Source: an uncultured virus (IMG/VR IMGVR_UViG_3300002220_000147)
Taxonomy: Duplodnaviria; Heunggongvirae; Uroviricota; Caudoviricetes; Crassvirales
Reading direction: 5' to 3' (one strand)
Length of the DNA stretch: 32,943 nt
IMG/VR virus record: IMGVR_UViG_3300002220_000147
Each line of letters begins with the position of its first letter. Position 1 is the stretch's first letter. Below are positions 12,636 to 32,943 of this stretch, one piece after another. The position numbers and the translations under genes are program-made. The notes below the pieces were generated by a model that made no database searches, had not been told where the DNA came from, and saw only the letters and a program-made list of their open reading frames with translations.

Positions 12636-15600
12636 ATGAGCAATATTGATTTATCACAAATAATTCAAAATAGTACAAATGAACTTGATCCTGTTACACA
12701 ACAACCCACTAAAGGTAAATCAAGGTATGTACCATTAAATATTAATGCAAGAGATTATGAGTTTAATAAATTTCCAACAGAAAATGTAGGAAATTATACT
12801 CAAGGAGAAAGAAGTTCATATGATGAGAATCTTACTCCAACTCAGTTAAGAGGTTTGGTAAATGCTCCTGAAAATTCTGAAGCATTTTTAGAAGATTTTA
12901 GAAGTCAGGAACAAGCCTCCCTACCTGCATTTGGTAATGCTTCAGCTAAGTTATTGGCTAAAACTGGTATAAATGTACTTGGTGGATTAGCTGGAACTGT
13001 ATATGGTGTGGGGAGTGCCATAGCTGAAGGAAATATTACCAAACTATATGATAATGCTATAATTAATGAATTAGATGGGTGGTCTAAGAATTTAGACAAG
13101 GCTATGCCTGTTTATAAATCATCTAACTATGAATCTGATAATCTATTAGAGAATATAGTTAAGAATCCAATTATGTTCGCTGATGTTGCTTCAGATGCTA
13201 TTAGTTTTACTGCAGGAATTATGTTAACTGCTTATGCTGCTGGAGCTATAGCTGCTCCTTTTAAAGTAGCTAATGCTGTTAATAAAGTTAGTAAATTTAA
13301 TAAGGGAGCTAGATTTTTAGAAGAGGGAGTTGCTGGAGTTGAAAGTATAGATAAAGCTTCTAAAACTTTATTAGGTGCTAATAAAATAGATGATGTCTTA
13401 GGTAATGTAAGAAGGATTATAACGGGTTCTGCTTATGAAGCTTCTGTTGGGGCTAACAATACGGCTCAGAATATGAGAGCTAAAGCTATTCCTATCTTAG
13501 ATAAAGAGCTAAGTGATAAATATAACTTACTTGCTCAGGAAGCTATAGCAAGGCATCCTAATGCAGCAGAAAATCCTGCTATACAATCAATGATTGATGC
13601 TGAGTTAAAGTATATTAAATCAGCTTATGATTCCGAGAGAAGTAAACGTCTATTAGAGTTAGAATATAATGTTCAAAGAGCAGGTATGGGTGATTATGTT
13701 ACTAACCTTGCTATCTTAGGAACTTCCAATGCATTCCAATTTAGTTCAACATTTGGTATGAGATGGAGTGGTGCAAGAAAAACTTTATCCTCAGGTGCTG
13801 CTAAATTTAGTAAAGAAGTTGCTGAAGAAACAGGTGAAAAGTTATTAAAGGCTACTGCTACTAATGTGCCAACAACCAAAGTTGGTAAGATATTAAGTAC
13901 TGCTAAGACAATAGTAGAGAAACCTTTTGTTGAAGGTATATATGAGGAGGGATTACAGGGAGCTTCTTCTACAGCAATGTCAGATTACTATCTTAGAAAA
14001 TATGACTCTAAGAATTTTGGTGAAGCTAGAACTTATTTAGAGAGTGCCTATAGAGCATTAATGCAAACTTACGACCCATCTAATACACAATCTTGGAAAG
14101 AGATTGGTATGGGTATGATTATAGGGGGATTAGGTGCTCCTGGTAAAGGACTTATGCCTGGACATTTAGGAATTAATTCTGATACTCAAAAGAGAGAACC
14201 TTTATGGACTGGTGGTATAAAGGGTAGTTTTGATGAAAGAAAGAGTAGGAGAGATAATGTTGGCAGAATACTATCTAAATATAAGGATATAGGTGAGAAT
14301 ACTACTATCGGTATGAAAGCAGGTTATAACAATGTAGTTGCTGATATGGAGGCTGTTCGTAATCAGGAGGAAAGTATTAAGAATAATGATAAGAAAGCAT
14401 TCTTAGATAATCAGGATGATAGGTTCTTTGGTTTTGTTAAAGCTAGGGAATCTGCAGGTGTGGGTAGTACTATTGATGATGAGATTGATTCTATGAAAGA
14501 AATGACTCCCAAAGGGTTTATAGAAACTTATTCAGGAGACCAATCTGATTTATTATCAATGACTGCTAAACAGCAAGAGGAGTATAAGAATAGTACTATT
14601 GAGGCATTGGAGAAAAGACTATCTGCAATTAGAGAGTCTATGAGCTTGGTTAATAGCATTGAACCATCTGACCCTATTAATAACTATATCCCTGAAATAG
14701 AGGATATTAAGGAACAATTTGCATACCTACATAGTAAGGGTGCTTTTATTGATTTAAGACAAGACCAACTAAAGAATCTACTTGATACAATGACTACAGG
14801 AGTTATTGATGGTAGAACTGCTTTACAACTTGAAAAAGACATGGCTCTTCTTGGTGTTGATAGGAATGTTGTTGAAAATCTTGTATCTAAGAGAGATAAA
14901 ATCTCTAAGTTAGAGGAATCTTTAGCTGTTAAAGAAGATGAATTATCATCTATAAGAAATACTACTAATGATAGATTAAAAGTTCAGAAGCAGCAGAAGG
15001 ATAAACTTGATGATGAGCTAACAAGTTTAAGAAATGAGTTACAGCAAGAAAAAACTAAACTAACCAAGTTTATTAGTAAGAAGGGTAGAAGTAATCGTGA
15101 AGCTGTTGGTGGATTAACTACCCCTCAAGCAAGAGCTGAAGTTAAGGCTGCTGAGAAGTTAGACCATGATGTTGTTGTTGAGTATGGTAAAAAAATAGAG
15201 AAATTAGAAAAGGATATTGCTAATAGAGAGAAAGCTGCAAGTACTTTTAATAAATCTATAACTAAGATTCAGAAGAAGTTAGACGAATTAGATATAGAGG
15301 GTAAGACAACTATTGAGAAAATAAAAAGTGAGTTAGACTCTTATAAAAAATCATATAGAGAAGAGCTTGATAAAAGGCACACTATATCCAAAGAAGCAGC
15401 TAATAGAAGGAATGTAGACTTTACATTTGACAACTATAATGCTTATGCAACTGAAATTATTAAGGTTATGGAAGCTGATGAGGTATTTCAAAAGAACGCT
15501 CAGAAGTATTATTCGACTAATCCCTTAGAGCAAGATAAAATAAAAGAAGCTTTAATTGATATGGGAAGGCTTGAGAACTCCCGTCAAGAAGCTATTGAAT

Positions 15601-18600
15601 TACTTAACTTTCTCAAAACTAAGAGTGGTAGAGATATTGCTGTAACTAAGTTAAAAAGGGCAATGTATAAAAATTATGAGAAAGATTTTGCTATAAATGA
15701 AGAGGTTAAAGAAGAAATTACTGAACTATTAAAAGACCCAAGATACCTAACTACAGGAATTCCTTATAGTTATTTATTAAATGGTAAAGAAGTTATTGGT
15801 AAAATTATAAACCACATAGAAAGTGGTACTCCCCTATTTGTTCCAAATGATAAAAAGGATACTGTATATGAGGATAAAGATAAGGATGGAAAAGTCATTG
15901 AGTCTTATACACTAATATCATTACAACAGATTTTAACTTTAGCTAAAGCTACGAATCCAGAAATAACAGAAAATAAAGTACTTGATGATGCTATATTTGC
16001 TACTAAACAAGAAGATGCTAAACTAAAGAAAGTTGGTAGTATTAATACAGATAGTGGTACTTTCACACTCCCTGGTGATGTTATGGAAGATAGTGAAGGT
16101 AATGAATACTTTGTAGTTACTAAATACACCAAAGAAGGTGCACCTTATTTTGTATATTATGATATTAATGAAAATGGTTCTATAGGCCCAAGGACAATTC
16201 CTGAGCAAGATCAGCCAGACTATAAAACACTTAAATTAGTATCTAGTGAGGATAAGGTATTTGATGGAGATTTAGTTGATTATGAAGATTCTAAAGGTAA
16301 CAAAGAAATAGGTATATTAGCCTATGAATCTCCATTCTTATTTGAAGGTGAGGCTAACGACCAATCTACATATCCAAAGAAACTTACTTTTAAACCTGTT
16401 GCAGGAACTACTTCAATAGTTATTGAAGATAGGGATACTATTAAAACACTTGTTGACCAAGCAATAGAAGCTAAATCTTCTAAAGAAACTGTAGTAGATT
16501 CTAAGACTAAGAACCCTATTATTAATTATAAGGGACAGGATGGTAGCATAGAATATAGAATCAAACAGGCTAAGAAAATATCCAAGTGGAGAAAGAGTAA
16601 GACGGGTAAGAGATATAATAAACCTTATACCTTATACTTCCTACCGGGGGAAAATAAATTTACTACTATAGAACTTAGTCCTGTAGCAGGTAAAACTTTA
16701 GCTGAGGTAGAAGAACTAGCTAGAAATGGTAACCTTACATCAGAAGACCTTACAGGATTAACTGGTAGTAGAGAAAAGGTATCTAACTATGACATTACAG
16801 ATATTGAAGTATTACAGGATGATTTTGTAAGTAAAAGCGGAGAAAGATATGTAATCTTTAAAAAAGGTGATGCTATATTTGCAGCTAAAAAAATCGCTAA
16901 GTTTTATAAGATATTTACTGAAAGTAATCAAGTTAGTAATTATGGGAGAAACGGTGAAGTTAACTTTGCTAAAATTACCTATTATGTAGATAATAGTTCT
17001 GAAAAAGAATTGGGTGAAACCTATGATGATACTATTAAGTTATCAGCGCAGAATCCTCACCTTATGTTTGTAGCAGGTAGGGAAGTTGAATTTACTGAAG
17101 TTAAATTACCTTCAGGTAATATCTTTTACGAAAATAAGAGAAATCCTGATGGAAGTTTGGTAGTTCACGCTAATAAATCACAACAGAATTGGTATAACTT
17201 TTTAAAGACTAAGTTTGAAGGTGACCCTGAGAAACTTAAAGAGTTCATGGATAATCATGTGCTCAAGGTTGTTGTGAATAATAGTGAAGCAACTGCTAAG
17301 TATTTTGAAGAAGACGATGCTCCTAAGACAGGTATAAATTCTGATGGTACTATTTCTTTACCTATGAGTAAAGAGGTTTATCTTAAGGTAGTTATTGTAG
17401 ATAAGAATACTTTAGAACCTATTACTGATGAAAATGGTAATGAATTATTTAATTCAATCCACTCACCTAATTTTACTAACTTTGACTCTACAAGCCCAGA
17501 AGCTAAGGCTTTCTATATTGAAGAACTTAATAAACTTCGGGCATTAATTATAGCCAAGATTAATGAGAATGCAGAACATTCTCCTACATTGTTATTACCT
17601 ATTGTTGATGTAACTACAGGTAGAGCTGTATATGAAGAATCAGTAGTTACTGAACGTGGTAAAGAGAGGACAAGATTTAATGTTAAGGGTAGACTAGTCT
17701 CTGAAAATGCCGATAGTGTATCTATCCCTTGGGATGTTATTACTTCTCAAAAAGATGCTACTGATGAGGCTATTGGGGCAACCGTTATAATTAATGGTAA
17801 GGAGTATAGATTCAGTAAAAAGAGTAGAAGTGTTGGTCAAATAATTTCTGCAATAGTTGGTGCTAATGGTAAAGCTATTCCAGTAACTTTACTTACAAGA
17901 AATGTTAATAGTGAAGAAGCTACTACTATAGCGGCATTGTTAAAAATGGTAGCCAATGGAACTAATGAGTTTGATGGTATTCCTATTATTCCTGAAAGCA
18001 GTCAAAGTGTTAAAGATGCTCAATTCTACCTTAAAAAGTTTGTTAAATACGGTAAGAATTCAGGTAAAAATGTTGATACCCAATTATATTGGGATGCTAA
18101 AACTAAGTCTATTGTTATAGGTAAGGATAGTATTTCTTTAGAGGAAGTTAATTCTGAAGAGGGATTTAATAAATTAGTTAGTAAGTTAAAGGAACGTAAA
18201 ATACTCCATGTATCTAAATCTTTTAAAGGTAAACCCTTTAACGTATCTTATACAGACAAAGATGGTAAGGTAGTTAAGTCCTTATCTTTTGGACATTACA
18301 ACAATTACTTGTTTGGTGATAAAGATAGTAAAGGCAATTCCACATTAAGACCAGTACTCCAAACTGACTTGGCCAAACAAGTTGATGGAGTTAATCCTGT
18401 TGTACAGGTAGGTATGGAGTATGGGGATTTGCATACATCTATTACTGATGCTCCTATATTTACTAAGAAAACTTATGCAGGTGCTGAGACTAAAAGAACT
18501 CCTAGTAAAAAAGTTGATAATACAAAAGATGGAGTGGCTGGACTTGATGCTGGAGCTCCTGCAGATTTAGCAGCTAAGTTTCTAGAAATTCAAGATGAAT

Positions 18601-21600
18601 TAGAAAGATTTATTGAAGGTACTCATACTGGAACACCAGTTGGAACGCTTTCAGATGTGTTAAAAGATACTACTGAAGCATTAGCTCCTACTAAAACTGA
18701 ATCTGTAGATACAACAATGCCAGCATCAGGAAATCTAAGTGATTTTCTTGGTACTAAGGATGAAGTAGTTACAGGTAATGAGGTAAGTGATGAAGAAGCT
18801 ACTAGATTAGTTGCTTTATCTAATACTACTGATATACAGTTTGAAAATATACCGCAAGTAAGGGAATGGTTTAGGAAAAACCTGCCTAATATTCCTTTGG
18901 AAGTAGTGGACAAGATAATTGCTACTGCTAAAGGGGGTGCATGGGGTACATTTACAGGCAAAGCTGTTAGGTTATACAATCTTGCTGAAATAGGTACAGC
19001 ATTCCATGAAGCATTTCATGCAGTCTATAGAATAGGACTTACTAGATCTCAACAAAGAATGCTTATCAATACCATAAGAAAAGAAAAAGGTAAGGATATT
19101 TCTATTAGTGATATAGAAGAACTTCTTGCTGAAGACTTCAGAAATTGGATGTTAACAGGTAAATCTGAGTATTCAACTCCATCACCTGTTAAAAGAACTA
19201 TATTCCAAGCTATTCAAGATTTTATTGATAGTATTATAGATTTGTTTACAGGAGTCAAAGGATTTAGAAATACTATAGAACTATATCAAAATATAAATAG
19301 TGGTGCATATTCTCATATCAGAGCTAAAACTGAGGAACTATCTAAAGATAATTGGAAATTGAGACAAATTACAGGCTTAGATGTTACTGAAACTGAAGAC
19401 CTTATTACAGGACTTAGTGTAAGGGTAATGAGTAATCTATATTCAAAGTATAATTCTGATTTTACAGAATTTTTAAAGAATATAGGTGGATTGATAGTGC
19501 AGGAATTACAAGACTATAAAAATAGTGAATGGATACCTGAGGGTAAGAAGAAAAGAATTGAAGGTGTCCTTACCAACAATCTAGCTGAAGTTATAACTAG
19601 TATTAAAGACCATTTTAATTACATAGGTTTATCCATTGATATGGAATTAGGGGATGATGCTAATTCTCTTATAGAATCCGTAAATGATGGGGAGGCTATA
19701 GCTAATAGGGGACAGGAATACAACGATAGTATCGAAGTGTCTAATATAAGAAATATGGCTAATGAGATTAAACTTCTTATTCATACCTTATATGAAAGAG
19801 TTCCTGTTAGAGAAGGAGTATCAGCAGAAAAACTTAATAGCGTAGGACTTCCTACAATTGTTAATTTTGCCAGTACATATAATACATTACTTGAAACTTT
19901 AAATGGCACTACTAATTGGGATGGTGCTAACGGTATAATGACTAAACTTAAAAAGTTAGCTACAGAAAAACCTGAAATTACCCTTCTTATTAATAGATTA
20001 AATAAACTTACTGGCGATAGGGGTGTTGTAGTTAAAAATAAATTTAGGCAAGCCTTTTCCATCAATAGATATGGATATAAAACCTATGTTATTGGAGAAG
20101 AAGGTGGGAAGTTTATTAATTCAAGTACTTCAAGGAATATTGACAGGTTGCGTGAGCAGTTAGATAGTGAGTATAAAAACTCAAGTCTCTATAAAGAAGC
20201 TCTGCATGAAGACGCTGCTAAAGTTAATAGGAAGATACTCTCTGAAATTACTGAGTTGAAAAAGATGGATAAAAACAGTCCTGCCTTTAAAACAAGGTTT
20301 AGTAATCTTATGAGGGGACTTGGGTTTGATAATATATTAGACCTTAATTCATTAATTAATAATCCTATATTATCAGACGAAGTACTTATAACTTTATCTG
20401 AAGAAAATACCTTTGCATCTACTAATTTAGTTTCAGATTTAACAGTTCTGAAATCAGGTAGATTTAAGAAAGTACTTATGAACGAAGCTCTTAATAGAAA
20501 GAACTATTTTGAGCCTCAACACGCTAATCCTAAGAATAAGATTGTACATGAATATTCTCTTAATAATTACTATTCTTCAATAGTAAATGTATTGAATAAT
20601 GCTATGAATCTACCTACAGCAGAAGATAGGATTGCTGATGTATATAATAGGTTACCTCAGATGAGAAATCTTGAGGGTAAATCTATATGGTGGACTACTG
20701 TATTGAATGGATTAACGGATGGTAGCTTAGACCTTAGTATTACATTTCTTGAAGGTATGCGTGAGAATATTAGTGGTGCTGAAGGTAAAGTTACTTATGA
20801 CTTATCTCAGACAGACCTTGCTAAAATGCATATTGAAGGTATGTTAATTGCTGGATTACACACATTCCGTAGACCTTCAGATAAATCTCTTGAACCTGCT
20901 ATCGAAGGATTTGGGTTAGAGATTAAACCTGATAATACCAGACTTAAGCAGATACTCATTGGTTATATAAAGCATGACCTTAAAACAACTAATAATAAAG
21001 GTCTGCAAATGCTTGAATCAATATTTTCACCTCAACTTGTTGCAGATATTATAGCAAACCAAGGTAAACTTGAACTTATTAGTGATAAAATTTTAACAGA
21101 ATTTAAGAAATATTTAAGTGATGAGGCTACAAGTATAGAAAAATTACTTACTGAATTAAAACTTATTCATTCTAAAGGTAATCTCTTTTCTGAAGAACTT
21201 ACTAAGGTATATAAAAATACTTCTGATATTATAGATGCATTCGTATTAAACTACTTTATTAGTAGGATTGAGCAACATATGATGTTTCTTGGGGATTTTA
21301 CTCAGTTTACACAGCTATTTAAGAGGACTTCAGGGCCAACAGGTACAGGTAAAACCTTTAGCCAAGATGCTCATACAGTTGAAATGATTCAAAAGGGGTA
21401 TATTGCTCAACTTAGTAAGATGCCGTTAGAAAGCAGATATAATAGACTAGACCTTATACTCCAGCTTACAGTACCGCAAAGAGAGGCTTTGGGAATTACC
21501 GATGAGATGGTTCTTAATCTTCCTGTAACTATAAACTCTACTAATATTAGTATTCTTAAAGAAAGAACTGAGAAGATTACTGAACGTCAGAGAGAATGGT

Positions 21601-24600
21601 ATGAGAAACTTATCAGAGAAGATGCTGCTAATTCAGGATTATCTGAAGGACAGATAAGTATTCTTGTAGACCAGTATATGCAACCATACTATAATATGGA
21701 TATTGCAGACGGTTTAGGTATGATGTCATTTGATAGATACAGGCATTTCCTTATGGCTACAGGTGATTGGAATATGGATACTCAAGAGCCTGTATATCAG
21801 AAGATTATTAATGGTGAGCCATTAACAATTAAAGATGTTGCTGTATTTCCACCAATTAAACCACAGGGATTTGGCCCTAAAGCCTTTAAAATTCTGTTTG
21901 GTGAAAATGGCCCTGTAGAACAGGATATGTCAGATGAAAACTTTAAGTTAGCGTTTGAGAAATTATCTATTATACCACTAATCCCTACTACAACTCAAGG
22001 AAAACAGATAGGTGTACTAAGTGAATCAATGCAAATGTCAGGTGTTGATATAGCAATATATCAAACAGGCTTAAAAGACAATACTTCTAATGAAGAAGAC
22101 ATTGTTGATTTTAAAGGAGAGCCTATGTATATGAACAGTTTCAATCAGAATCTTAAATACTGGAAGATTCAATTGGATATTCATCCTGAGATTGAAGAGT
22201 CTGATACGGATGGTACTCAACAAAGAGTTGGTATATTTACTGACTTGTTTAGTGGTGGACAACCTGTTGATTTTGAAGGTGAGGAGAATTGGAATGAATT
22301 ATCTTTATCTGAAAAGGAAGAGTCCTCCCCATTATATAAACTTTATAATGAGTATTCAAATATCTATGAGGGCATTATAACTGATTCCAAAGAGAAGTTT
22401 CTAAAGGAGTCGGGAATAGTTTTATCTGAAGATGGTGAGTATATTATAAAAGACTATGAGAAATTCTCTAAAGTAATCAGGAAAGAGATTAGTAGTAGGA
22501 GATTACCTTCCAATATACTTAAAGCAGTTGTTGTTGATAAAGAAACAGGTAAGCTTAAATTTCCTATTGATGCACTACCTATAGCAGATAAGATTGAGAA
22601 TATGTTATTTGCTAAGGCAATGAACAATACTGTCAGAATTAAAAGAGCGGGTGCTTCTTATATCCAAACTTCTAATGCTTTATGGACAGATGCTAATACT
22701 GCAGAAGCTACTAAATTTGCCAAAAAACTTAACTTTATAAGGGAAGAGAATGGTAAGATTGTAGGGGCAGAAGTATATCTACCTAATTATATGAGAGATA
22801 TAATAGGTGATATTAATGATGCAGACTTAGATAAATTAATGAAAGAAAAGCCTGAATTATTCAGGTTAATGGGTTATAGGATTCCTACTCAGGGGCAGAA
22901 CTCTATGCTACCTTTGGTAGTTAAGGGCTTCTTACCTGCTGAAATGGGGGATACTGTAATTGTACCTTATGAGATTGTTGCTCAGTCAGGTGCTGACTTT
23001 GACATTGATAAATTACATATATTCAGACCTAACTTTATAAATCTTGATGGTAAGGTTACTTATGTAAATGATAGTATTACTGAAGATGATATTAAGAAGG
23101 ATATAGAGGTAATTAATAAACTTCTACCTACTTTGACAGCTATGCCGGGAGAGAAAATTTCTTCTGTAATAGAAGCTAATGCTGTATTGTCAATGATGGG
23201 TATTACTACTGAAGAGTTAATTAATGAGAAGGAAGAAATTGGTAGCCTTCTTAGGGGTAGATTATCCTTGATGAAGAAACAAAACAGACTTCTTGAAATT
23301 CAATTAGAACTTCTGTCACATCCTGCTGCTACAAGGAACTTGATTGTACCTAACGGTGCTGAATTTCTTAAAGAAGAAGCTGCATTTACTGAGTATCTTA
23401 AGGAATTAGGGAGAGCTGGTGCTATAGTTGATATTAGTAAAGTAACCAAAGAATCCTCTGACTTTAAGAATTGGTTACCTGTTTATACTAAGGAACAAAA
23501 TACTACTAAGCAGAGGAATCTTCTTAGTTACAGATTTGAACTTGAGACTGGTATGGCTTTTAAAGGAGGTAAAAAAGGGGTAGCAATTGCAGCCACTTAT
23601 GCTAAATTCCATAATCTTAGCCAGCAATCAGGGTTAACTCTGTCAGGAGTAATCAAGACCAAGACAACTCATATTGATGGTAAGAATGGCCCCGCAACAG
23701 CATATTCTGATAAGGGTACTCCCGTAGTACTTAAGTTTGAACATAACACTGTAGATAAGGAAGGTATTACTTTAGTTGCTCTTGGTAAGAAATTTGCCAA
23801 AGGTGGTAGACTTATATCTGAGCAATTTAATGAGCATTTAACTGCTAATGTGGATATTGCTAAAGACCCCTTTATCTTTAAACTCAACACCAATGGTATT
23901 ACTTCAAATGTAAAATACTTTATGATAGCAGTTGGAGCTAATCCTGAATTTGCTAATAGATTCTTAACTCAACCTATTATAGAGGAGTATATTGAAGAAA
24001 GGTTAAAGAATGAGTCAGTATCAGTAAATGCTACAAGAACTAATAAGGAGGAATCAGTATATGAGGGAGAGGATGCTATTCTAGAGAAATTGTACAGAAA
24101 GTATGGTGGTAAATCTTCTGATAATGTAGGTAAGGTGCTTGAGGATATTCATGGAAGGTCTGAAGGTAACATTACTATTCAGCAACTTAATGAAGGTATT
24201 CTTAAAGGTGCTTCAACTACCCAAGAAGACTCAGATAAAACATTTCAACTCAAAGTACTTGCTGACTTTAAAGCCTATTTAGAGTATGGTAAAGCATTCT
24301 CTGATGGGGTACAATCAGTTAAATCTGATACCAAGAGGCTCAAGAACCATTCTGAAACTGTTACATTATTAGATAACATTGAAGAGGTAGAAAAGGTTGG
24401 GTTATTCTCCGATATAAAAAAGGCTCTTAGTAGGGGCATCTTAAAAGGATTTACTAATGCTCACGCATCTTTTGTAAAGAACCTTTACAAACAGGTATTT
24501 TTAACTCAATCGAATGGTATTCAGGAGAAGATTTATAAAGCAATCAAAACTGATATTTCTATTGGTAGAGCCCAACTATCTGAGAAAGAGGTAGATAAGA

Positions 24601-25664
24601 TTAGACAATCTATTATGACCTACTTATTACAGGTAGCCGTTAGTAAAGCATTATATGGCACAAAAGGAGTTCCATTTACTTATGATATAGTAAAAGAGAA
24701 TCTTGTAGGTGAACAGAGTGTTCCTAGAATTACTCATAATTTCTCTAAAAGAAAGAATACTATTATAACTATATTTAGAGATTTCTTATATACAAGAGCT
24801 GGGGATACTGCTGAAAATGTAGATACTATTAAAGTGAATGGTAAGAAATTAGACCCTTCTACTGCTGACTTAATTGCTGACCAATTCTCTCAGGTTAATG
24901 AGGGGGATAGTGCAGTGTTTAATCAGTTATTGACTGTAACTGCAATGCAGACTGGTACAATGTATTCTCCAATCAACTTCCTGAAACATATGGATTCAGA
25001 AGCTGTTGGTAAAATACTTGCCCCAATCATTAAACAAGCATTAGAAAATCCTGTAGTGAATACATTTAATCTAAGTTCAGATACTTATGAAAACTTCTTA
25101 GATAATTTCTATAGAGCTAATCGTAAGAATACTAATCTTGTGCCTAGATTAAGAGGTATGAGACACGCTAAACTTAGTAGTGATGGTAATGTCCTCACCA
25201 TAGGTAAAGATAGTATGTATTATGGTAGAAGAATGCTTAGAAGAGTTGAAAAGTCTAAGGATAGTAAGGGTAATGTTAAATTTATTGATATACTTTACAA
25301 GTATGAGGGGTTTGCTGGAGAAGAGGCTATTTATGTTAAGACTAATGTAAAGAGTACATTCTTCCTTCAGGAATATCATAACGGTAGTCAATCAGTGGAT
25401 ATAACCAACATAGATAAGGCTAACTTCATATCAGATACTGATAGAAAGAATTTAGTAGATGCTTTTGTAAAGAAGGGGATGTCAGTTCCTGTATATGATG
25501 AAATTGTTCAACTAAAAGAAGCTGCTGCTGAACCTATAGCTGAGGAAACTTCATCTTATTATGGTAGAACAGAATCAGGCATTTCCGTAGAAAGTTTAAT
25601 ATCTGAAAAGGAATGGAAATCAATGAGTGAAGATGAGCAGAATAATTTTATCAAATGTAACTAA
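12636..25664 (+). CDS. giant virion polyprotein: membrane-active N-terminus, coiled coil, zincin protease domain, virion DNA-dependent RNA polymerase (phi14:2 gp66-like)
   Basis: GYRIPTQG...GADFDIDKL catalytic motif (DFDID at 22995-23009), upstream ADG and PIKP motifs; HEAFH (19005-19019) with downstream EELLAE; N-terminal hydrophobic helices and an EGIYEEGLQ motif. Confidence 0.9.
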   Translation: MSNIDLSQIIQNSTNELDPVTQQPTKGKSRYVPLNINARDYEFNKFPTENVGNYTQGERSSYDENLTPTQLRGLVNAPENSEAFLEDFRSQEQASLPAFGNASAKLLAKTGINVLGGLAGTVYGVGSAIAEGNITKLYDNAIINELDGWSKNLDKAMPVYKSSNYESDNLLENIVKNPIMFADVASDAISFTAGIMLTAYAAGAIAAPFKVANAVNKVSKFNKGARFLEEGVAGVESIDKASKTLLGANKIDDVLGNVRRIITGSAYEASVGANNTAQNMRAKAIPILDKELSDKYNLLAQEAIARHPNAAENPAIQSMIDAELKYIKSAYDSERSKRLLELEYNVQRAGMGDYVTNLAILGTSNAFQFSSTFGMRWSGARKTLSSGAAKFSKEVAEETGEKLLKATATNVPTTKVGKILSTAKTIVEKPFVEGIYEEGLQGASSTAMSDYYLRKYDSKNFGEARTYLESAYRALMQTYDPSNTQSWKEIGMGMIIGGLGAPGKGLMPGHLGINSDTQKREPLWTGGIKGSFDERKSRRDNVGRILSKYKDIGENTTIGMKAGYNNVVADMEAVRNQEESIKNNDKKAFLDNQDDRFFGFVKARESAGVGSTIDDEIDSMKEMTPKGFIETYSGDQSDLLSMTAKQQEEYKNSTIEALEKRLSAIRESMSLVNSIEPSDPINNYIPEIEDIKEQFAYLHSKGAFIDLRQDQLKNLLDTMTTGVIDGRTALQLEKDMALLGVDRNVVENLVSKRDKISKLEESLAVKEDELSSIRNTTNDRLKVQKQQKDKLDDELTSLRNELQQEKTKLTKFISKKGRSNREAVGGLTTPQARAEVKAAEKLDHDVVVEYGKKIEKLEKDIANREKAASTFNKSITKIQKKLDELDIEGKTTIEKIKSELDSYKKSYREELDKRHTISKEAANRRNVDFTFDNYNAYATEIIKVMEADEVFQKNAQKYYSTNPLEQDKIKEALIDMGRLENSRQEAIELLNFLKTKSGRDIAVTKLKRAMYKNYEKDFAINEEVKEEITELLKDPRYLTTGIPYSYLLNGKEVIGKIINHIESGTPLFVPNDKKDTVYEDKDKDGKVIESYTLISLQQILTLAKATNPEITENKVLDDAIFATKQEDAKLKKVGSINTDSGTFTLPGDVMEDSEGNEYFVVTKYTKEGAPYFVYYDINENGSIGPRTIPEQDQPDYKTLKLVSSEDKVFDGDLVDYEDSKGNKEIGILAYESPFLFEGEANDQSTYPKKLTFKPVAGTTSIVIEDRDTIKTLVDQAIEAKSSKETVVDSKTKNPIINYKGQDGSIEYRIKQAKKISKWRKSKTGKRYNKPYTLYFLPGENKFTTIELSPVAGKTLAEVEELARNGNLTSEDLTGLTGSREKVSNYDITDIEVLQDDFVSKSGERYVIFKKGDAIFAAKKIAKFYKIFTESNQVSNYGRNGEVNFAKITYYVDNSSEKELGETYDDTIKLSAQNPHLMFVAGREVEFTEVKLPSGNIFYENKRNPDGSLVVHANKSQQNWYNFLKTKFEGDPEKLKEFMDNHVLKVVVNNSEATAKYFEEDDAPKTGINSDGTISLPMSKEVYLKVVIVDKNTLEPITDENGNELFNSIHSPNFTNFDSTSPEAKAFYIEELNKLRALIIAKINENAEHSPTLLLPIVDVTTGRAVYEESVVTERGKERTRFNVKGRLVSENADSVSIPWDVITSQKDATDEAIGATVIINGKEYRFSKKSRSVGQIISAIVGANGKAIPVTLLTRNVNSEEATTIAALLKMVANGTNEFDGIPIIPESSQSVKDAQFYLKKFVKYGKNSGKNVDTQLYWDAKTKSIVIGKDSISLEEVNSEEGFNKLVSKLKERKILHVSKSFKGKPFNVSYTDKDGKVVKSLSFGHYNNYLFGDKDSKGNSTLRPVLQTDLAKQVDGVNPVVQVGMEYGDLHTSITDAPIFTKKTYAGAETKRTPSKKVDNTKDGVAGLDAGAPADLAAKFLEIQDELERFIEGTHTGTPVGTLSDVLKDTTEALAPTKTESVDTTMPASGNLSDFLGTKDEVVTGNEVSDEEATRLVALSNTTDIQFENIPQVREWFRKNLPNIPLEVVDKIIATAKGGAWGTFTGKAVRLYNLAEIGTAFHEAFHAVYRIGLTRSQQRMLINTIRKEKGKDISISDIEELLAEDFRNWMLTGKSEYSTPSPVKRTIFQAIQDFIDSIIDLFTGVKGFRNTIELYQNINSGAYSHIRAKTEELSKDNWKLRQITGLDVTETEDLITGLSVRVMSNLYSKYNSDFTEFLKNIGGLIVQELQDYKNSEWIPEGKKKRIEGVLTNNLAEVITSIKDHFNYIGLSIDMELGDDANSLIESVNDGEAIANRGQEYNDSIEVSNIRNMANEIKLLIHTLYERVPVREGVSAEKLNSVGLPTIVNFASTYNTLLETLNGTTNWDGANGIMTKLKKLATEKPEITLLINRLNKLTGDRGVVVKNKFRQAFSINRYGYKTYVIGEEGGKFINSSTSRNIDRLREQLDSEYKNSSLYKEALHEDAAKVNRKILSEITELKKMDKNSPAFKTRFSNLMRGLGFDNILDLNSLINNPILSDEVLITLSEENTFASTNLVSDLTVLKSGRFKKVLMNEALNRKNYFEPQHANPKNKIVHEYSLNNYYSSIVNVLNNAMNLPTAEDRIADVYNRLPQMRNLEGKSIWWTTVLNGLTDGSLDLSITFLEGMRENISGAEGKVTYDLSQTDLAKMHIEGMLIAGLHTFRRPSDKSLEPAIEGFGLEIKPDNTRLKQILIGYIKHDLKTTNNKGLQMLESIFSPQLVADIIANQGKLELISDKILTEFKKYLSDEATSIEKLLTELKLIHSKGNLFSEELTKVYKNTSDIIDAFVLNYFISRIEQHMMFLGDFTQFTQLFKRTSGPTGTGKTFSQDAHTVEMIQKGYIAQLSKMPLESRYNRLDLILQLTVPQREALGITDEMVLNLPVTINSTNISILKERTEKITERQREWYEKLIREDAANSGLSEGQISILVDQYMQPYYNMDIADGLGMMSFDRYRHFLMATGDWNMDTQEPVYQKIINGEPLTIKDVAVFPPIKPQGFGPKAFKILFGENGPVEQDMSDENFKLAFEKLSIIPLIPTTTQGKQIGVLSESMQMSGVDIAIYQTGLKDNTSNEEDIVDFKGEPMYMNSFNQNLKYWKIQLDIHPEIEESDTDGTQQRVGIFTDLFSGGQPVDFEGEENWNELSLSEKEESSPLYKLYNEYSNIYEGIITDSKEKFLKESGIVLSEDGEYIIKDYEKFSKVIRKEISSRRLPSNILKAVVVDKETGKLKFPIDALPIADKIENMLFAKAMNNTVRIKRAGASYIQTSNALWTDANTAEATKFAKKLNFIREENGKIVGAEVYLPNYMRDIIGDINDADLDKLMKEKPELFRLMGYRIPTQGQNSMLPLVVKGFLPAEMGDTVIVPYEIVAQSGADFDIDKLHIFRPNFINLDGKVTYVNDSITEDDIKKDIEVINKLLPTLTAMPGEKISSVIEANAVLSMMGITTEELINEKEEIGSLLRGRLSLMKKQNRLLEIQLELLSHPAATRNLIVPNGAEFLKEEAAFTEYLKELGRAGAIVDISKVTKESSDFKNWLPVYTKEQNTTKQRNLLSYRFELETGMAFKGGKKGVAIAATYAKFHNLSQQSGLTLSGVIKTKTTHIDGKNGPATAYSDKGTPVVLKFEHNTVDKEGITLVALGKKFAKGGRLISEQFNEHLTANVDIAKDPFIFKLNTNGITSNVKYFMIAVGANPEFANRFLTQPIIEEYIEERLKNESVSVNATRTNKEESVYEGEDAILEKLYRKYGGKSSDNVGKVLEDIHGRSEGNITIQQLNEGILKGASTTQEDSDKTFQLKVLADFKAYLEYGKAFSDGVQSVKSDTKRLKNHSETVTLLDNIEEVEKVGLFSDIKKALSRGILKGFTNAHASFVKNLYKQVFLTQSNGIQEKIYKAIKTDISIGRAQLSEKEVDKIRQSIMTYLLQVAVSKALYGTKGVPFTYDIVKENLVGEQSVPRITHNFSKRKNTIITIFRDFLYTRAGDTAENVDTIKVNGKKLDPSTADLIADQFSQVNEGDSAVFNQLLTVTAMQTGTMYSPINFLKHMDSEAVGKILAPIIKQALENPVVNTFNLSSDTYENFLDNFYRANRKNTNLVPRLRGMRHAKLSSDGNVLTIGKDSMYYGRRMLRRVEKSKDSKGNVKFIDILYKYEGFAGEEAIYVKTNVKSTFFLQEYHNGSQSVDITNIDKANFISDTDRKNLVDAFVKKGMSVPVYDEIVQLKEAAAEPIAEETSSYYGRTESGISVESLISEKEWKSMSEDEQNNFIKCN

Positions 25665-30938: not shown

Positions 30939-31214
30939 TCATTCTTCACTCCTTTCTACATAAGGGGAAGTATCTAAATAAATAAAAGCCCATTCTCTTT
31001 CAATTAATTTCTTATTAAGCTTAGTTACCTTATGAATGTAATCTTTAGCCCAAGCAACCCACTCATCATTTTGAGCTTGAGTTACAGGGAATAGTCTGTA
31101 CCAATTTGGTGATTTAATTTCTTCAGGGTATTTTTCTGCAACTTCTTTACAATTAGTATTATGGTATTTTGATAACCACCAATCCATTAAGTCTGTTCTA
31201 CTAACCTGTTTCAT
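30939..31214 (-). CDS. hypothetical phage protein (Trp-rich)
   Basis: 91 aa; ATGA overlap with the upstream gene. Confidence 0.7.
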   Translation of the reverse strand: MKQVSRTDLMDWWLSKYHNTNCKEVAEKYPEEIKSPNWYRLFPVTQAQNDEWVAWAKDYIHKVTKLNKKLIEREWAFIYLDTSPYVERSEE

Positions 31215-31612
31215 TTTAAAATATCCTCCTTAGTATATAAACAAGGTCTAAGAACCGCCAAGTGGTCTTTTATTCCTGCTTTATCCATTAAATAACTAAA
31301 TGTATGATTTATAATTAGTTTACCATCAACAATATTAAATCCGTAGATAAATCCTAACTTATCGTAGTCTGGCATTTTTATATACATTCCTGTATTAAAA
31401 AATACTCCGTCTACTATTCTGGTTACTGCTGTCACTACATCTCCTTTATAATGAGGAATATATGGAGTAACTTCTATAATCTCTTCCCAATCGTAAGATT
31501 TCTCTACAAAAAGAGATGGTATAGAATGGTATTCATTTGTATAAAATTTACAACCTAAGTCGTGCCTCTCTTGTACAATGTCTCCTGTAATCCTATGTTT
31601 ATATTTTTTCAT
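31211..31612 (-). CDS. hypothetical phage protein
   Basis: The MKKYKH start at 31612 is preferred over 31645 because it gives only a short overlap with the upstream 56-aa ORF. Confidence 0.65.
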   Translation of the reverse strand: MKKYKHRITGDIVQERHDLGCKFYTNEYHSIPSLFVEKSYDWEEIIEVTPYIPHYKGDVVTAVTRIVDGVFFNTGMYIKMPDYDKLGFIYGFNIVDGKLIINHTFSYLMDKAGIKDHLAVLRPCLYTKEDILK

Positions 31613-31769
31613 AGTTTTTAATTTTTTCGTTAAATTGCTTCTCATTCAAATGAGTTGTGTATGGGAATTCTTCTCCGGCTAAATTTTTAATTCTTAAATA
31701 AGTTATAGCAAAATAATAAGGAGATTCTTTACACTTCTCAATCTCGTTAAGTATATCCTTTTCTTCCAT
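31599..31769 (-). CDS. 56-aa protein (absent from ORF track) resembling the N-terminal helix motif of T4-type large terminases
   Basis: Manual translation MEEKDILNEIEKCKESPYYFAITYLRIKNLAGEEFPYTTHLNEKQFNEKIKNYEKI*; fills the gap between its neighbours, starting 2 nt after the upstream stop. Confidence 0.65.
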   Translation of the reverse strand: MEEKDILNEIEKCKESPYYFAITYLRIKNLAGEEFPYTTHLNEKQFNEKIKNYEKI

Positions 31770-31771
31770 AA

Positions 31772-31996
31772 TTAATCAGGTTTATAAGGTGTTGGTAATT
31801 TCATATACGCTACAATGTTACCTTCAACATTAGCATAATCATCTGATTTATCGTAAAGACATAGTTTTACAGTATCATCATTAAGTGTGACTAACCATAA
31901 TCCACTTTCAATAGGTTTACCTACTCTCCAACATAAAGCCCTCTCCCCATTATCATGTTGAGGAGAGAACTTAGTACTAAATGATATATTATTCAT
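31772..31996 (-). CDS. DUF551-like small phage protein
   Basis: Pattern W....P...G.WLVT...IVAYMKLPTPY resembles DUF551. Confidence 0.6.
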   Translation of the reverse strand: MNNISFSTKFSPQHDNGERALCWRVGKPIESGLWLVTLNDDTVKLCLYDKSDDYANVEGNIVAYMKLPTPYKPD

Positions 31997-32591
31997 TTTA
32001 TTAAATTTTTAATAACCATTACTTTTAATTGCTGATAAGATACAGGTGTGTAATTCCAAGCATCCACGCCTATATCATATCTCATAAAATGATATGGAGC
32101 TATTTCACTGGCTGTATAGTTTGGGCCACTATGAATATGTCCATGTAAATGAATATATCCCCTTCTCCAATATAAAAATGGATAATGGGTTATAATAAAA
32201 TTCATATGCTTACTCTCCAATTCATCATCAATAATTGTGAATTGATACATATCAGAAGTTTGATGAAACATATCTTTGATTATCTGTCTATCAAGTCTAT
32301 TCCGGTAATCATGATTTCCAAGAATTAAATATATTTTACCATTTAACCTTTCAACTAATTCTCTAATATAGTCTATCCTTGCAGTCATAACAAAGTCTCC
32401 AGCATGGAATACAATTCCATCCTTAGGAACTACACTGTTCCAGTTGTCAATCAAAGCCTCATTCATATGAAACTCATCTTGGAAAGGTCTGTTACAAAAC
32501 TCTATAATATTTTTATGGTAAAAATGAGTCAAGTATCCGAGGTAAAGAATATCTTCTCTGCCTCGGACATATTAAAATTAGGTATTTTCAT
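31993..32591 (-). CDS. calcineurin-like metallophosphoesterase interrupted by a 5-nt gap (candidate programmed bypass, otherwise pseudogene)
   Basis: The first frame (ATG 32591) encodes MKIPNFNMSEAEKIFFTSDT then TGA. The second frame resumes at HFYHKNII and contains HAGDF, LGNHD, THYP and HGHIH. Skipping 5 nt restores TSDTHF and gives 197 aa. Confidence 0.85.
32534..32569 (-). other. mRNA stem-loop directly 5' of the interruption
   Basis: UGUCCGAGGCAGAGAA-GAUA-UUCUUUACCUCGGAUA: 15 of 16 positions pair (two G-U, one C-A mismatch). Confidence 0.75.
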
Positions 32592-32643
32592 TTGTGTTAT
32601 TTTTTAAGTATTATGAATGCTGGTTCGTTATGGTTAGCCACGA

Positions 32644-32839
32644 GTTAGGCACAATAAAACTATCGTGCTTTCCAAAGGTCTTCCATTACATCAGAACCTT
32701 TATCACCGTAATCGCTTCTCCAAGTTATTAATGCTAATAAAAAGTAAAGCACTCCTATTATCATTGCTATTGGTGTGCATAAACACTTGATTAAAGTTGT
32801 CATTAATGGTATCATAATTTAAAATTTACTGTGCCTAAC
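32644..32839. repeat. 15-bp inverted repeat pair bounding the 51-aa ORF
   Basis: GTTAGGCACAATAAA (32644-32658) versus TTTACTGTGCCTAAC (32825-32839): 14 of 15 complementary; the ends fit GTTRRRY and RYYYAAC. Confidence 0.8.
32660..32815 (-). CDS. 51-aa membrane peptide carried in a cassette-like unit (absent from ORF track)
   Basis: Manual translation MIPLMTTLIKCLCTPIAMIIGVLYFLLALITWRSDYGDKGSDVMEDLWKAR*; fills the space between the flanking inverted repeats. Confidence 0.65.
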   Translation of the reverse strand: MIPLMTTLIKCLCTPIAMIIGVLYFLLALITWRSDYGDKGSDVMEDLWKAR

Positions 32840-32925
32840 AAGCAATATAAAACAGTTGCCGTCAAGCTATTACTAAATTTGAAACGTCTTACAAGGCAAC
32901 CGTTTCATATTGCCGACCGTTACCA
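32833..32925 (+). mobile_element. attC-like integron cassette recombination site
   Basis: Starts GCCTAAC and ends GTTACCA, 93 bp; internal arms GCAATATAAAACAGTTGCC (32842-32860) / GGCAACCGTTTCATATTGC (32895-32913) match at 17 of 19. No integrase in the window. Confidence 0.65.
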
Positions 32926-32943
32926 ACCATTTAAGGAAGGTAA

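Follow-up and report, generated by a model that had tools for sequence, protein, structure and literature searches.

Evidence for a hairpin-assisted translational coding gap in the metallophosphoesterase gene of an uncultured phage, resembling a miniature of the T4 gene 60/MobA cassette

Introduction

Only a handful of systems are known or proposed to use natural programmed bypassing, namely T4 gene 60 and its homologues, the terminase of phage phiHau3 and the byps of yeast mitochondria (10.1101/2022.08.31.505936; PMC10732093). The gap in gene 60 has been shown experimentally to protect against MobA, and its bypass relies on a stop codon, matched codons and a 5' stem-loop (10.1101/2022.08.31.505936), whose re-forming behind the ribosome has been proposed to drive the slide (10.1101/2024.12.09.627546). 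Similar bypassing was stated to be unreported in other phages at the time of that account (Manning and Atkins, 2022; 10.1101/2022.08.31.505936). In the Streptomyces phage phiHau3, the large terminase gene is a candidate for UUA-triggered bypass of 10-nucleotide (nt) inserts (Antonov et al. 2023, PMC10732093). Here we describe an interrupted gene for a predicted metallophosphoesterase in IMG/VR record IMGVR_UViG_3300002220_000147, a 32,943-nt stretch of DNA from an uncultured virus (hereafter the window). Five nt separate the two halves of its D-x-H metal-binding motif, and from comparison with related genes it is highly probable that they are a programmed coding gap skipped by ribosomes, a hairpin-assisted miniature of the T4 gene 60/MobA bypass cassette.

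The closest system is T4 gene 60/MobA and the second is the phiHau3 terminase proposal; the present case departs from them in the length of the gap, the gene it interrupts, the family of the endonuclease and where the RNA structure lies. As in gene 60 and its myovirus topoisomerase homologues, as far as the accounts cited above describe them, the gap lies in the conserved metal-binding region of a phage enzyme, the take-off and landing codons match, a stop follows the take-off codon, a stem-loop precedes the gap and the gene immediately upstream encodes a free-standing homing endonuclease (here in some relatives of the window). The likeness extends to MobA elements in that the cassette sometimes outlasts its endonuclease, the endonuclease can be swapped (GIY-YIG in locus L130) and the distribution is patchy, with multiple origins. 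Unlike the 50-nt gap of gene 60, the gaps here are of 5–14 nt; the target is a metallophosphoesterase, the endonuclease is of the LAGLIDADG rather than the HNH family, and take-off is from a Thr instead of a Gly codon. Nor does a stem-loop here enclose the take-off codon in its 5' side; instead a hairpin placed 5' of the gap reaches that codon with its 3' arm. An internal Shine–Dalgarno sequence 6 nt before the landing codon would find no room, no endonuclease gene divides the gene into two open reading frames (ORFs), and bypass here is predicted from sequence comparison. With the phiHau3 proposal, as described, the locus shares a short gap in a phage enzyme gene, an A-site codon that is slow to decode and a 5' stem-loop proposed as stimulator; it differs in that the trigger there is UUA, a sense codon that is rare and tied to host physiology, whereas here it is a stop in all three forms, and in the endonuclease association and much larger comparative set found here.

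Low-level stop-hopping was reportedly seen by Weiss et al. in 1987 in Escherichia coli reporters, as unprogrammed +5 and +6 hops of about 1% efficiency. In those hops peptidyl-tRNA likewise leaves the codon before a stop and re-pairs with a match 5–6 nt downstream; the site described here differs in being natural, conserved and flanked by a dedicated hairpin. Our literature search found no publication joining bypassing with a metallophosphoesterase or a LAGLIDADG enzyme, and no published description of this arrangement.

Layout of the interrupted gene

On the minus strand the gene starts with ATG (32591) and reads TTC TTT ACC TCG GAT ACT TGA CT CAT TTT TAC CAT across the junction (Table 1). 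The upstream frame comprises 20 codons, from the ATG (32591-32589) to GAT (32537-32535) and ACT, and then meets the stop. The downstream ORF (31993..32532; TTG start, THFYHKNII..., 179 amino acids (aa)) is in the +2 frame relative to it. The D-x-H motif is thereby split, with Asp on the upstream and His on the downstream segment, and it exists in a single polypeptide only if the 5 nt are skipped; deleting them from the window gives FFTSD-T-HFYH, as in uninterrupted relatives.

Table 1. Features of the interrupted gene (positions in the window)
Feature	Position	Strand	Evidence
5' coding segment, Met1-Thr20 (MKIPNFNMSEAEKIFFTSDT); holds the Asp of the D-x-H metal-binding motif	32532..32591	-	translation; matches N-terminus of uninterrupted P0004
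5' stem-loop; 3' arm formed by the Thr-Ser-Asp codons	32534..32569	-	folding; equivalents in all 31 distinct interrupted loci folded
Candidate take-off codon ACT (Thr20)	32532..32534	-	sequence; ACN here in 32/32 interrupted loci (search patterns required ACN)
In-frame TGA directly 3' of take-off; slow-to-decode A-site codon	32529..32531	-	sequence
5-nt coding gap TGACT (equivalently ACTTG)	32527..32531	-	absent in uninterrupted relatives; kept in two run X1 strains
Candidate landing codon ACT, same as take-off; shares A with last base of stop	32527..32529	-	sequence
Resumed coding segment, His21 (CAT, 32526-32524) to stop, 177 residues; GD, GNHD and HGH motifs	31993..32526	-	ORF and profile matches

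The initial annotation of this DNA, made from its letters alone, had located the take-off ACT, the TGA, the second ACT and the CAT, and re-reading the sequence showed its coordinates to be exact. It had also proposed that a hop between the matched codons would yield FFTSD-T-HFYH, the very sequence that stands uninterrupted in 6/6 phage relatives in GenBank and in P0004, and it had called the downstream motifs intact, as GD, GNHD and HGH in the 177-residue segment indeed are. The locus has the matched, non-overlapping take-off and landing codons of a bypass site (ACT/ACT, 5 nt apart) and a stop (TGA) in the A site. P0004 is the closest relative (75% identity), and its uninterrupted MSEAEKIFFTSDTHFFHK is the exact product of a 5-nt skip in the window. 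A reading of TGA as Trp under an alternative genetic code was rejected, as the upstream frame then meets TAG nine codons later. No tRNA genes were found in the window, and the 1-kb region had no match at the DNA level among GenBank phages.

Judged from profile and motif matches, the gene encodes a calcineurin-like metallophosphoesterase. The downstream segment matches the Pfam family Metallophos (PF00149; 28.1 bits, cut-off 21.5), the window protein is matched by phrog_547 (phosphoesterase; E 3.6e-40), and the nearest relative of solved structure is 1xm7. G45-D46, G72-N73-H74 and G131-H132 are invariant across 60 relatives, and D-x-H is nearly so. The product of the window gene is on record as a 157-aa fragment from a gene caller (P0001); because gene callers truncate such genes in this way, annotation pipelines overlook the Asp of the active site and would take the enzyme for a broken one.

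The insert was also looked for in sequencing data. Run X1, which may be the source sample, contains 95% of the sampled words, and its Logan contigs come from an independent assembler, not from independent reads. A 1910-nt X1 contig (depth 30) has no differences and no gaps over 31900-32565, and a 362-nt contig (depth 6) has 46 substitutions and no gaps over 32310-32565; because the latter aligns without gaps, a strain diverged by ∼18% keeps the 5 nt. Its listed differences are mostly three bases apart, as for a translated frame. The initial annotation had asked for the 5 nt to be confirmed in raw reads; at the level of contigs, the insert is kept by another assembler in two strains. Contigs drop rare variants, and rare gap-less variants could escape those of X1. 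The gene was found in no RNA run: contigs of X20 covered only 32810-32943. The small-share runs X2 and X3 also miss the junction.

Recurrence of the gap in diverged relatives

Nearly all relatives of the gene are uninterrupted: all six GenBank phage relatives have FFTSDTHF in one frame, and most relatives' proteins are of 190–200 aa (among the 120 listed). A scan of viral contigs with a single protein as query returned nothing; an alignment-based scan did find relatives. One of 33 viral-contig relatives (L007, 59% identity) reads GAC ACT TAA CT CAT, with gap position and length as in the window and TAA as the stop, and one of 80 metagenome relatives (L109, 38% identity) reads GAC ACC TAG GT ACT CAT, an 8-nt gap.

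Directed scans used degenerate patterns in which FFTSD-Thr-T[AG][AG] was separated from His by a spacer, at first of fixed length and later variable (0–14 nt). In viral contigs the fixed-spacer scans gave five real interrupted genes out of six matches for a 5-nt spacer and seven out of seven for an 8-nt spacer (12/13 together). With the variable spacer, all 26 stretches matching the GAC pattern were real interrupted genes, as were five of the 21 matching the GAT pattern; the other 16 GAT matches were chance and were dropped, nine of them belonging to one family with a normal gene MNRYISDLHFGH. As a negative control, the GAC pattern in 596 Gb of prokaryote genomes gave 49 matches, of which one was real (L222, on a 6.8-kb contig); the 48 chance matches had random spacer lengths, often TGG in place of the stop, no downstream ORF and no hairpin. 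The interrupted arrangement occurs in viral contigs more often than by chance.

After de-duplication 34 interrupted loci remained, including the window. The initial annotation had allowed that the break might be unique to this genome, in which case its proposal would fall; the 33 other phage or metagenome loci, from diverged lineages, are all broken at the Thr|His junction of SD-T-H. The insert is neither an assembly error nor a lone pseudogene. The interrupted form is a minority, since the uninterrupted form in the same sequence context has at least 117 matches in IMG/VR.

Four further relatives may be interrupted alleles of the window's subfamily and were left out of the locus count: P0022 starts at LTHFHH, and P0027, P0039 and P0054 start at an internal Met (156–180 aa). 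Ordinary damage was also seen in human-gut relatives, with a 2-nt AT expansion that shifts the frame after THFY in L115 (1201 region) and an Asp>Tyr change in the motif in L106; together with L093, which is truncated and has unrelated upstream sequence, these give a baseline of random breakage.

Anatomy of the gaps

Gap lengths in the 34 loci are 5 nt (19 loci), 6 nt (four), 8 nt (nine), 12 nt (one) and 14 nt (one), and codons were tabulated for 32 of them. A stop stands directly after the Thr codon in 32/32 (TAG in 18, TAA in 11 and TGA in three); TGG was found there in none of the 32, although the patterns allowed it and chance matches often have it. His is preceded by ACN in 25 loci (out of 32), and in L129 and L156 an ACG take-off codon is paired with an ACG landing codon, which is co-variation. 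GCT or GCG landings occur in four loci, exactly the four 5-nt gaps with a TAG stop; here the landing codon starts with the G of TAG, which could form a G.U pair with U36 of tRNA(Thr). The landing codon is ATT in L149 and L154 and ATA in L173, with hairpins and downstream ORFs intact. A ribosome skipping from the first Thr codon onto the landing codon would produce D-T-H in every locus.

Some gaps carry repeats. In the commonest 8-nt gap (L109, L128 and L130) the take-off codon and the first five gap bases form a palindrome, ACCTAGGT, and the 12- and 14-nt gaps (L141 and L161) contain repeated TAGGT-like units, as if grown by local duplication.

The gap classes bear on whether the ribosome might instead shift frame, by -1 (equivalently +2), at ACT-TGA. 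A stop in the A site and a nearby RNA structure are known frameshift stimulators, and the downstream frame is indeed -1 relative to the upstream one in the 5-, 8- and 14-nt classes. The 6- and 12-nt gaps are in frame, however, so that no single frameshift explains all loci, and this adds to the case that the initial annotation had made against a -1 shift from the residues it would insert. A shift in the window would give FFTSDT-L-THFYH, and generally D-T-L-T-H or D-T-L-x-T-H rather than the near-invariant D-x-H. There is no slippery X XXY YYZ heptamer at or before ACT TGA, tRNA(Thr) is unable to re-pair at -1, and a shift leaves the conservation of Thr landings and the ACG/ACG co-variation unexplained. 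We consider frameshifting very unlikely.

A two-piece or truncated enzyme, made by stopping at TGA and restarting at the overlapping TTG, with the Asp absent or complemented by a free 20-residue peptide, seems a little less likely again. The window does have a TTG two codons before His, gene callers predicted products of 157–180 aa (P0001 and P0022), and split enzymes beside homing endonucleases are known (10.1101/2022.08.31.505936). The initial annotation had set the TTG start aside because it loses the Asp, and the relatives agree: in 22 loci (out of 32) the His frame offers none of the start codons ATG, GTG and TTG once past the preceding stop, and a start codon at the junction is present in only four, the TTG of the window being a by-product of the TGA variant. 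Restarting also finds no conserved Shine–Dalgarno sequence and leaves the duplicated Thr codon unexplained.

Selection and phylogeny

Interrupted loci have intact downstream ORFs of 166–203 aa across lineages. Among interrupted genes, non-synonymous divergence (dN) is low and synonymous divergence (dS) mostly saturated, with dN/dS of 0.05–0.25 where it could be computed. Differences by codon position between L128 and L132 are 0.09/0.04/0.45, and two other pairs are similar. The downstream ORFs are under strong purifying selection. The homologue comparison that the initial annotation had suggested thus comes out in favour of its proposal, in that the matched-codon/stop gap recurs at D-x-H with purifying selection on the downstream ORFs.

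A FastTree phylogeny was built for 177 downstream segments, 32 interrupted, 139 uninterrupted and six of unassigned status, and on it the interruption trait changes at least 10 times. Two deep clades are wholly interrupted (L157/L163/L175/L139/L133/L156 and L136/L143/L148), and in a third, which holds the 8-, 12- and 14-nt gaps and L134, 11 of 12 rows are interrupted, the exception being L113.

These data also bear on the idea of a dead gene, with the gap as an endonuclease-immunity scar or a random indel in a non-functional phosphoesterase. That most relatives are uninterrupted (the IMG/VR matches above being in the exact context) would fit such an idea, as would the sporadic damage in L115, L106 and L093 and the lost 3' part of L161; the intact ORFs, the saturated dS with low dN, the co-varying hairpin described below and the conserved stop and landing codons speak against it and place it among the least likely readings. 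Equally improbable is removal of the gap from RNA (by cleavage and re-ligation or editing near the hairpin) or from some of the DNA molecules, with no ribosomal bypass: the conserved hairpin could be a recognition element for a nuclease or ligase, a polynucleotide kinase-phosphatase gene lies upstream in L121 and the short direct repeats ACT..ACT could mediate rare deletion, but the X1 contigs of both strains are gapped with no gap-less contig (within the limit on rare variants given above), a stop in the A site and a matched landing codon are features of decoding and not of splicing, and we know of no precedent for mRNA introns of 5–14 nt in bacteria or phages.

A hairpin upstream of the gap

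An outer 9-bp stem (UGUCCGAGG/CCUCGGAUA) and an inner one of 6 bp make up the hairpin of the window, whose 3' arm extends to the A of the take-off codon. The minimum free energy (MFE) of this hairpin is -20.1 kcal/mol (z -4.21), and none of 200 shuffles was equally stable. Each of the 31 distinct interrupted loci that were folded, the window among them, has a strong hairpin whose 3' arm abuts the take-off codon; this hairpin is missing from uninterrupted relatives. The MFE of the 48 nt ending at the take-off codon averages -19.3 kcal/mol for 30 interrupted loci versus -4.9 kcal/mol for 75 uninterrupted ones (Mann–Whitney p 1e-14). Three apparently weak cases (L136, L143 and L148) have an equivalent stem, GTCCGAGG...CCTCGGAC, with a structured loop of ∼44 nt.

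The 3' arm always consists of the codons just 5' of take-off (Thr-Ser-Asp or equivalents) and ends on or next to the take-off codon. Thirteen different 8-mers serve as 3' arm, with matching 5' arms. A perfect Watson–Crick/G.U complement upstream of the 3' arm is present in 24 of 31 interrupted versus two of 76 uninterrupted loci (chance is ∼0.6% per locus), and RNAalifold on 15 loci gives 10 pairs, five with compensatory double changes and none broken. The FFTSDT peptide itself is common to uninterrupted genes too. The hairpin joined to uninterrupted GAY-ACN-CAY was found nowhere in IMG/VR; the corresponding pattern fits nine of the 32 interrupted loci. On folding, the locus has a gap-specific, co-varying 5' stem-loop of a kind able to re-form behind the ribosome.

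A search of 31900-32943 against Rfam (E<=1) returned no family. An SD-like (Shine–Dalgarno-like) GGAGG is present in some 5' arms, often as GGAGGUG, and is absent from L156, L149 and L173; a general mechanism based on such sequences was rejected, as several hairpins lack them. The gap is also too short for one at -6.

Homing endonuclease genes upstream of interrupted genes

In several loci (L124, L125, L126, L127, L132, L141, L143 and L156) an ORF of ∼295 aa lies directly upstream of the interrupted gene and encodes an N-terminal zinc ribbon, LAGLIDADG domains (PF00961 and PF14528) and a C-terminal helix-turn-helix; it is in four pieces in L120 and is cut by the contig end in L007. A hidden Markov model (HMM) of this endonuclease matched 10 of 29 interrupted loci with enough flank and none of 96 uninterrupted ones (Fisher p 1e-7), counts that are not phylogenetically independent. 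Within the gene, no DNA is more conserved than the stretch that holds the gap (FFTSDTHF). From the His codon onward L124 shares 89% identity with L001, an uninterrupted near-relative, and upstream the two have unrelated sequence; the window and L007 are ∼91% identical over hairpin and gap and 64–69% downstream. Because homology breaks at these places, the mobile unit seems to consist of the endonuclease gene, a rewritten 5' gene end and the gap. The association points to an immunity insert of a selfish element, tolerated through bypass, instead of the recoding switch controlling the enzyme that the initial annotation had supposed.

Individual loci vary around this plan. In L130 (1170-1964, minus strand) the place that the LAGLIDADG gene takes in relatives, here upstream of an allele with an 8-nt gap, is occupied by a GIY-YIG endonuclease gene (PF01541, E 4e-8). 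The endonuclease ORF of L132 (83-1018) runs in frame into the N-terminal peptide of the phosphoesterase and ends at the TAG of the gap, so that the stop of the gap doubles as that of the endonuclease. In L161 (1020-2039; 14-nt gap) the phosphoesterase ORF ends shortly beyond GNH, 77 codons from His, and the 3' part is lost; a LAGLIDADG-like ORF lies at 1287-2039 (E 5e-8 to the endonuclease HMM), as if another catalytic motif had received a second endonuclease insertion. A tblastn search of GenBank phages with the endonuclease gave matches of only 36–37% coverage and 31–35% identity, and no cultured phage with the cassette was found among them.

Proposed mechanism

The recurrence of the break, the conserved stop, the Thr landings, the purifying selection and the gap-specific, co-varying hairpin together favour the matched-codon stop-hop over the alternatives above, as the initial annotation had proposed for the window. 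A ribosome would translate Met1-Thr20 and then pause, its peptidyl-tRNA(Thr) paired with ACU and its A site occupied by UGA; by then the 5' arm of the hairpin would already be outside the ribosome. Nucleating pairing with the 3' arm would then pull the mRNA in the direction of translocation, the hairpin re-forming behind the ribosome, and the tRNA would release and re-pair 5 nt on, with decoding resuming at CAU. The predicted product, ...FFTSD-T-HFYH..., has the D-x-H metal site intact, and its junction peptide would be IFFTSDTHFYHK. By analogy with gene 60, the hairpin is most likely what drives the forward slide. The gap would disrupt the endonuclease target in the conserved D-x-H-coding DNA and so probably protects the cassette from its own endonuclease (self-immunity), and bypass would preserve the enzyme.

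Several observations weigh against this model or parts of it. Seven of the 32 landings are not Thr codons (GCT/GCG in four, ATT in two and ATA in one); ATT and ATA mismatch tRNA(Thr) at the second position, therefore re-pairing is not strict or these copies are decaying, and L149, L154 and L173 reflect either relaxed re-pairing or poor hopping. In gene 60 the take-off stem-loop surrounds the take-off codon; here the hairpin is placed 5' of it, and on folding no conserved structure was found around or 3' of the take-off codon, so that a gene 60-type take-off stem-loop is lacking. The drive is conjectural because the 3' arm is still inside the ribosome at take-off, and the efficiency of hopping could be very low. 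At the protein level, P0004 has a hairpin-type N-terminal peptide (MSEAEKIFFTSDTHF) and no gap, possibly through precise gap loss. Deep support in the FastTree phylogeny is weak, gain and loss of the trait being indistinguishable, and the loci behind the endonuclease counts are not independent. Finally, the endonuclease HMM has no match in the whole 32.9-kb window, where 352 nt are available upstream of the gene; the immunity role is thus extrapolated from relatives, and the window looks like a cassette lacking its endonuclease, with hairpin and gap only.

A wider reading, to which we lean a little less than to its opposite, is that these loci belong to a large undescribed class of portable phage micro-bypass cassettes, each an endonuclease with a rewritten 5' end, in which a hairpin, a stop and a duplicated codon may suffice for efficient hops of 5–14 nt in very different hosts. 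If so, a selfish element destroys its own target inside an essential catalytic motif and leaves the protein unharmed, hairpin-driven stop-hopping would be a general, transplantable decoding device and not a curiosity of T4, and many phage genes listed in databases as 'frameshifted' would be mis-annotated. The family of loci described here would in itself tie bypassing for a second time to the self-immunity of homing endonucleases, now of the LAGLIDADG family, which suggests a general route by which a selfish insert is made harmless by recoding. The more than 30 diverged natural variants (in gap length, stop, landing codon and hairpin) form a ready mutational series for minimal hop signals.

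The phage and neighbouring genes

The phage is distantly crAss-like. A 1371-aa structural protein of the window matches 84 records at <60% identity, including uncultured crAss-like, Bacteroides and Cellulophaga phages, and among the matches listed identity is 27–29% (12 records). A 4342-aa ORF of the window (12636-25664, plus strand) matched no PHROG family at E<=1e-5. Its flanking neighbours are ORFs of 1371, 801, 566 and 1658 aa, the last with an exonuclease-like stretch (phrog_298).

Two ORFs of 56 and 144 aa (31211-31769, minus strand), which overlap by 47 nt in different frames and have no family match, lie downstream of the phosphoesterase gene. Upstream of the gene there is a 51-aa membrane-type ORF and then the end of the window. 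In other loci genes of nucleotide metabolism are common upstream of the phosphoesterase gene: the polynucleotide kinase-phosphatase gene of L121 (1073-1999, minus strand) is one, and a deoxynucleoside monophosphate (dNMP) kinase is encoded there in L128, L129, L131, L134 and L161. Such neighbours suggest a role of the enzyme in nucleic-acid or nucleotide processing.

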